Positions 1 to 462 of a stretch of 462 nt of DNA are shown here, piece after piece. This DNA comes from Escherichia coli. Lineage in GTDB: Bacteria > Pseudomonadota > Gammaproteobacteria > Enterobacterales > Enterobacteriaceae. Where the stretch lies: NCBI RefSeq assembly GCF_003334385.1, contig NZ_QOWN01000179.1. One strand, 5' to 3'. The notes beneath the pieces were generated by a model. The model had not been told where the DNA came from. It saw only the letters and a list, made by a program, of their open reading frames with translations, and did no database searches. Each line of letters begins with the position of its first letter. The stretch's first letter is position 1. Position numbers and translations under genes: made by a program.

Positions 1-16
1 TATTTTCCGAATGCAT
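1..16 (-). CDS. Possible 5-prime end of a leftward-transcribed gene (only the first 5 codons, M-H-S-E-N, are in the window); product unknown
   Basis: Minus-strand ATG (plus-strand CAT at 14..16) is preceded by a perfect AGGAGG Shine-Dalgarno (plus-strand CCTCCT 22..27) with a 5-nt spacer. The open frame runs off the left edge. Too little coding sequence to assess further. Confidence 0.3.
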
Positions 17-265: not shown

Positions 266-295
266 GTGTCAATACGGCGCTCTGTTGACGCTTAC
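266..295 (+). repeat. Candidate right terminal inverted repeat (IRR) of the IS66-family element
   Basis: Reverse complement of 266..295 is GTAAGCGTCAACAGAGCGCCGTATTGACAC. It begins with GTAAGCGT, identical to 386..393 on the + strand, and aligns imperfectly with 386..415 beyond that (shared ACAG after a 2-bp indel, shared CCGT further in). IR length is not determinable from this window. Confidence 0.4.
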
Positions 296-296
296 C

Positions 297-389
297 GATA
301 AATATCAGTTCACCTATGACGATGAAAAAATGCTGTCGCTGGCAAAAGAGATGAAAAGCGTGGTTGACAACACATCGAAATATCCGTAA
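297..389 (+). CDS. Candidate 3-prime end of an ORF in the spacer between the two IS-like termini (DKYQFTYDDEKMLSLAKEMKSVVDNTSKYP-stop); product unknown, possibly the tail of an IS-interrupted host gene
   Basis: One + frame is open across the whole 90-bp spacer and terminates at TAA 387..389, which lies inside the GTAAGCG motif. Codon choices (CTG, GAA, AAA, GCA) look like enterobacterial coding sequence, and the overlapping minus-strand ORF has the F/L/I-rich look of an antisense frame. An open frame of this length is not statistically significant alone. Confidence 0.15.
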   Translation, partial: DKYQFTYDDEKMLSLAKEMKSVVDNTSKYP

Positions 390-415
390 GCGTACAGCCT
401 GAACCGTCTGGTCAG
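386..415 (+). repeat. Candidate left terminal inverted repeat (IRL) of a second IS66-like element extending rightward off the window
   Basis: GTAAGCGTACAGCCTGAACCGTCTGGTCAG starts with the same 8-mer as the reverse complement of the putative IRR at 288..295. Orientation is that expected for a left end with the element body to the right. No coding evidence is visible in the remaining 70 bp, so this rests on the terminal motif alone. Confidence 0.25.
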
Positions 416-462
416 AATCTGACGAATTAGACAAAGTGGTGTCCACCAAATAAGTAGTGGGA

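Follow-up and report, generated by a model that had tools for sequence, protein, structure and literature searches.

Does a perfect sigma-70 −35 hexamer lying just upstream of an insertion sequence (IS) end drive transcription into that element, or is its likeness to a promoter an accident of where the element came to rest? This question is raised by a stretch of 462 nucleotides of Escherichia coli DNA (contig NZ_QOWN01000179.1 of assembly GCF_003334385.1; hereafter the window), in which a first-pass annotation had pointed out TTGACA at positions 364-369 of the plus strand, close to a GTAAGCG terminus. The hexamer is indeed there and is perfect, but our analysis suggests that it is a coding by-product of an hsdR remnant, most likely without function, and that it forms no meaningful promoter (a reading to which we assign a probability of roughly 0.88). 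The outcome is negative and matters little: a coding origin explains the hexamer, and the promoter candidate can be dropped.

Composition of the window

Three E. coli chromosomes contain the window at 100% identity, and a fourth matches it at 99.6%. The window opens with the left (5') end of ISEc45, an IS110-family element on the minus strand (1-76), which was identified from the RefSeq annotation under the match and delimited by comparing locus L001 with an uninterrupted copy in locus L002. A 3' fragment of the transposase gene tnpC of an IS66-family element (element #1) follows at 77-265 on the plus strand; its open reading frame covers 80-265, is continuous with an intact tnpC of 1,614 nt (L002 4576-6189) and closes with the stop codon TAA at 263-265. 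The right terminal inverted repeat of the same element (266-295, plus strand) ends in CGCTTAC at 289-295. Beyond it lie an in-frame remnant of hsdR of 90 bp (296-385, plus strand) and then another IS66-family element (element #2), represented by its left end (386-462, plus strand); its tnpA starts at 478, past the end of the window. The hexamer is thus located between two facing IS66-type termini, CGCTTAC of element #1 and GTAAGCG (386-392) of element #2.

GTAAGCG had been taken for an IS end in the first-pass annotation, and it turns out to be the left terminus of an ISEc8-like element: the hsdR homology stops at 385, directly before it, and tnpA lies shortly behind. When complete, element #2 has a length of 2,442 bp (L002 6310-8751) and ends with CGCTTAC, and its assignment as ISEc8-like follows PGAP, by which a near-identical copy in strain cM8a is annotated with an ISEc8-family transposase. 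Its tnpA, tnpB and tnpC are annotated in L002 as well as in L011-L013, and all three are present in strains EC2, NMBU-W12E19, UPEC-245U and DETEC-S792. Element #1 spans L002 3684-6219, is bounded by GTAAGCG and CGCTTAC and is ISEc23-like by the PGAP labels of its relatives. Both elements resemble the IS66 family in these termini, in the order tnpA-tnpB-tnpC and in their size of about 2.4-2.5 kb. They differ from it in that neither copy at the window locus has an 8-bp target duplication (the flanks of element #2 are AAATATCC and CTTCTGTT), whereas a simple ISEc8 insertion elsewhere in hsdR is flanked by ATACATTC. This difference indicates a later rearrangement and does not speak against membership in the IS66 family.

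In strain SCU-104, element #2 ends just before the tnpC start codon (L001 7249/7250, about 1.25 kb to the right of the window), and the truncated element is joined to the toxin-antitoxin genes DUF987-cbeA-cbtA in the same orientation. The general claim that element #2 lacks its transposase in the genome of the window was considered and rejected, as it is true for SCU-104 only and the other two window-identical genomes keep the gene. The spacer is also spanned by an inverted repeat of 13 nt with 92% complementarity (288-300 and 381-393; ACGCTTACCGATA and TATCCGTAAGCGT), which amounts to the facing termini of the two IS66 elements with a few additional bases that match by chance, and is no separate element. 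An Rfam scan of the window and of the 12.4-kb locus around it gave zero matches.

Origin of the spacer and of its hexamer

The first-pass annotation had correctly placed the hexamer in a spacer, the identity of which was not known to it. This spacer (296-385) is identical at 90 of 90 positions to the intact hsdR of strain TBE6 (L003 4001-4090 within the coding sequence 990-4244), and the homology ends precisely at both IS termini. Relative to a gene with a product of 1,084 amino acids, its first letter is the third base of codon 1004 and its final letter the second base of codon 1034, so that codons 1005-1033 and the partial codons at either side are kept and the translated frame, DKYQFTYDDEKMLSLAKEMKSVVDNTSKYP, is the hsdR frame. 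The region falls into the C-terminal T1RH-like_C domain (Pfam PF11867, amino acids 748-1080 of the parent protein). Compared with the T1RH-like_C / DUF3387 region of HsdR as we know it, the spacer is therefore fully identical and in frame, but it retains only 30 of about 1,084 codons and is a remnant rather than a gene. The same 90-bp stretch is present in 1,078 of 5,426 complete E. coli genomes, nearly always under the annotation type I restriction endonuclease subunit R.

Within the remnant, the hexamer is read as gTT GAC Aac and corresponds to Val1027-Asp1028-Asn1029 of hsdR. We find TTGACA unchanged across four hsdR variants, all of them close relatives, of which one is clearly diverged just upstream and none is adjoined by an IS end. 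Since the hexamer is invariant in these IS-free genes, it is older than the IS junction. In all four, the sequence 17 nt downstream of TTGACA reads GACTGG. Judging from these alignments, the presence of the hexamer is explained by the coding of Val-Asp-Asn in the hsdR remnant. The earlier view, based on the weak −10, that the resemblance to a promoter is probably coincidental has thus held up and, through the identification of the spacer as hsdR, gains a positive explanation: the codons are invariant where no IS is near, and the promoter scores reported below are at background level.

The invariance of the hexamer could alternatively reflect a DNA-level role within hsdR, as an internal promoter or a protein-binding site, which the remnant would merely have carried along. 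This idea draws on the variant 6EVA, in which TTGACA and about 20 following bases are identical even though the sequence farther upstream differs. However, a mosaic or recombinant gene would explain the identity of 6EVA equally well, the number and close kinship of the variants compared limit what it can tell, and intact hsdR shows no resemblance to a −10 element 16-18 nt downstream, around GACTGG. The distance from the hexamer to the hsdR stop codon is moreover about 180 nt, and the next gene downstream in TBE6 is on the opposite strand. We regard such a role as highly improbable and favor the reading of TTGACA as ordinary hsdR coding sequence.

In strain M217, the same 3' region of hsdR persists as a pseudogene beside IS3 fragments and a group II intron reverse transcriptase (L004 1125-2633, near another hsdR fragment). 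The region in which this hsdR gene family is located has been struck repeatedly by mobile elements.

Promoter quality of the TTGACA/TAAGCG pair

TTGACA (364-369) and GTAAGCG (386-392) are separated by 16 nt (370-385), with G386 as the 17th base past the hexamer. The distance of 17 bp that had been given between the hexamer and GTAAGCG is therefore one too many, whereas the 17-nt spacing to the would-be −10 hexamer TAAGCG (387-392, plus strand), which is part of the invariant terminus of IS66-family elements, stands. TAAGCG had been called a poor match to TATAAT and agrees with it at only two of six positions, with G instead of T at position 6. A spacer of 18 nt leads to AAGCGT (388-393), which has A at position 2 and T at position 6 and likewise matches two of six positions; with 16 nt, the −10 would be GTAAGC (one of six), and spacers of 15, 16 and 19 nt all score below 17 or 18 nt as partners for TTGACA. 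The −35 half is thus the perfect consensus of a sigma-70 promoter, but no hexamer at a spacing of 16-18 nt comes near TATAAT while keeping A at position 2 and T at position 6. An extended −10 (TG at −15/−14) is absent, with CC at 384-385. The pair shares with sigma-70 promoters the consensus −35 and, 17 nt away, a hexamer that starts with TA; it lacks their defining −10 feature, and we do not class it as a promoter.

We further scored the pair with a sigma-70 position weight matrix (PWM) built on consensus frequencies that are reportedly those of Harley and Reynolds from 1987, with the leftover bases shared equally. By this matrix, which is a rough yardstick only, the pair reaches 7.5 bits and the consensus 17.6 bits. 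A pair at least as good is found in 97.6% of shuffled windows, and the surrounding 12.4 kb hold 77 pairs as good on both strands (about 3 per kb per strand), so that the score does not rise above background. Perfect TTGACA hexamers are expected 0.28 times per window when both strands are counted. A promoter scan returned 0 sites in the window or in the surrounding 1 kb, and it listed no terminator-like sites in either.

Despite these scores, the junction might act as an accidental weak hybrid promoter, in which TTGACA from hsdR serves as −35 and the IS66 terminus as −10 and from which low-level transcription enters tnpA-tnpB(-tnpC) of the ISEc8-like element. A perfect −35 at the optimal spacer of 17 nt would suit this idea, and TTGACA/TAAGCG is the top-scoring sigma-70-like pair within 266-500, with no better candidate by PWM upstream of tnpA inside the ISEc8-like left end. 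Between the pair and tnpA there is no terminator-like site, and most of the carriers examined have the downstream ISEc8-like element in complete form. Yet the −10 remains at two of six positions with either spacing and without an extended −10, the score is that of background, and no UP element is evident by eye upstream of the −35, where the sequence is A-rich without a consensus-like AT-tract. The hexamer is, furthermore, fully accounted for by coding, and the junction appears to be one inherited event found in 16 of 5,426 genomes (see below). We therefore consider a hybrid promoter unlikely.

If the hexamer fired, the transcript would enter the IS operon in most carriers, and even a feeble start at the pair could be relatively noticeable because the left end of the element offers no better internal candidate. 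A functional read-in promoter, weak but sufficient to raise the expression of the ISEc8-like tnpA-tnpB-tnpC at this locus, and perhaps also driving DUF987-cbeA-cbtA in SCU-104, seems less likely still, and improbable overall. If true, it would be a further case of an accidental promoter that stems from flanking DNA and reads into an IS, at a locus found in 0.3% of complete E. coli genomes.

The reading of the hexamer as a coding by-product, which we prefer, would instead run as follows. What was left of hsdR came to be flanked by two IS66-family ends, the right end of one element and the left end of another, ISEc8-like one. TTGACA was already present in hsdR before the ISEc8-like end came to adjoin it, and it was probably mere chance that the invariant terminus (G)TAAGCG of this IS then stood at the spacing of a promoter. 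The −10 half of the resulting pair is probably too poor for sigma-70 promoter activity to be expected, so the hexamer most likely does nothing. We infer that no transcript starts there.

In documented hybrid promoters, the IS end usually gives an outward −35 and the flank gives the −10. The junction studied here is like them in that its two halves come from different DNAs, a flank and an IS end, but this likeness is only superficial: here the −35 belongs to DNA outside any IS and is directed into the element, and the −10 is formed by the invariant IS66 terminus with its two matches. Alternatively, a single element contributes both promoter halves, one from each end, when its ends combine in a circle or tandem junction; this is shown for circles of ISEc11 and ISEc21 (PMC11187229). 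This arrangement, with the −35 in one end and the −10 in the other end of the same element, is not found in the window either, where the −35 is part of DNA derived from hsdR and lies 69 nt away from the closest terminus of the other IS, and the two IS elements differ. In the literature we found no promoter mapping of ISEc8 or IS66 ends and only passing mentions of promoters or targets of IS66, IS679, ISEc8 and ISEc45.

Distribution and history of the junction

The junction of the hsdR relic with element #2, searched for with a probe of 112 bp, is fully covered in 16 of the 5,426 complete E. coli genomes, in each case at 100% identity. These 16 genomes match the window at ≥99.7% from the 3' end of the element #1 tnpC onward. 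Taken by itself, the left end of element #2 is found at thousands of sites, next to different flanking DNA. The identity of all 16 junctions together with their common left-hand context points to a single inherited event, and there is no sign among the 5,426 genomes that the junction recurred or was selected.

The reciprocal junctions expected from simple insertions into hsdR, which would join the ISEc8 right end via AAATATCC to downstream hsdR, or upstream hsdR via CGATAAAT to the left end of element #1, are found in no complete E. coli genome. Taken together with the missing target duplications, this absence indicates that the rest of hsdR was lost through later rearrangement. Two candidate matches were rejected. 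A 95% match to a reciprocal junction in NCTC9113 consists of two pieces about 330 bp apart. In strain cM8a, a partial match within annotated hsdR, beginning 11 nt ahead of the IS end, had the appearance of the ancestral insertion. Here ISEc8 has instead inserted independently into another hsdR site, some 120 nt farther upstream, with the normal 8-bp duplication ATACATTC and a flank without TTGACA.

Other promoter-like motifs in the window

An extended −10-like motif, TGcTATAGT (TGn plus five of the six bases of TATAAT), lies at 45-53 on the plus strand and faces out of the ISEc45 end toward the tnpC fragment, the hsdR remnant and element #2. We estimate that chance alone would yield about 0.2 motifs of this kind per window. 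On sequence alone, rightward transcription would more plausibly come from this motif than from the TTGACA at 364-369.

The right inverted repeat of element #1 holds two more −35-like hexamers, an inward TTGACA (267-272, minus strand) and an outward TTGACG (285-290, plus strand) at 5 nt from the terminus. Combined with TACGTT at 19 nt, the inward TTGACA gives the highest PWM score of all pairs in the window; at 9.1 bits, it too is at background level. The inward hexamer sits in the block CCGTATTGAC, and this block is also found in the right end of element #2, equally far from the terminus, so that the hexamer probably belongs to the conserved end sequence.

ISEc45 and its target

The greater interest of the window lies in its nested mobile elements, with an IS110-family element sitting, site-specifically as it appears, within an IS66 transposase gene, although this kind of pattern is already published. 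ISEc45 has a length of 1,445 bp (L001 4632-6076) and is inserted in the tnpC of element #1 between window positions 76 and 77, as seen by comparison with the uninterrupted copy. Its transposase start codon lies on the minus strand at 16..14 (CAT on the plus strand). The layout of the element is of the IS1111 type with subterminal inverted repeats TATGACCTTT/AAAGGTCATA, the latter at 62-71 of the window.

Three diverged tnpC genes of the IS66 family, each from a different locus, carry ISEc45 at the identical point: one in the window and the others on the plasmids FORC_029p and p35A2a (L009 and L010, each around 1801-1880). The target point is the conserved sequence ...GGGAAAAAGAATT|ACATGTTCTTCGG near the 3' end of tnpC. 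From these insertion points, this looks like site-specific targeting of the transposase gene of one IS family by another IS. A published precedent is ISEc21, which targets transposase genes of the IS3 family (PMC11187229); no paper describing the target of ISEc45 was found in the literature.

As a further part of the IS1111-type layout, on the 3' side of its transposase gene and outside the window, ISEc45 has a non-coding region of 251 bp (L001 4632-4882, with the minus strand as the orientation of ISEc45), for which Rfam gave no match. It holds AAAAGAATT, an exact match of 9 nt to the target flank that abuts the insertion point, as well as the shorter matches TCTTTTT and GTTCTT to both flanks. 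These features would fit a choice of target by an RNA guide (seekRNA or bridge RNA).
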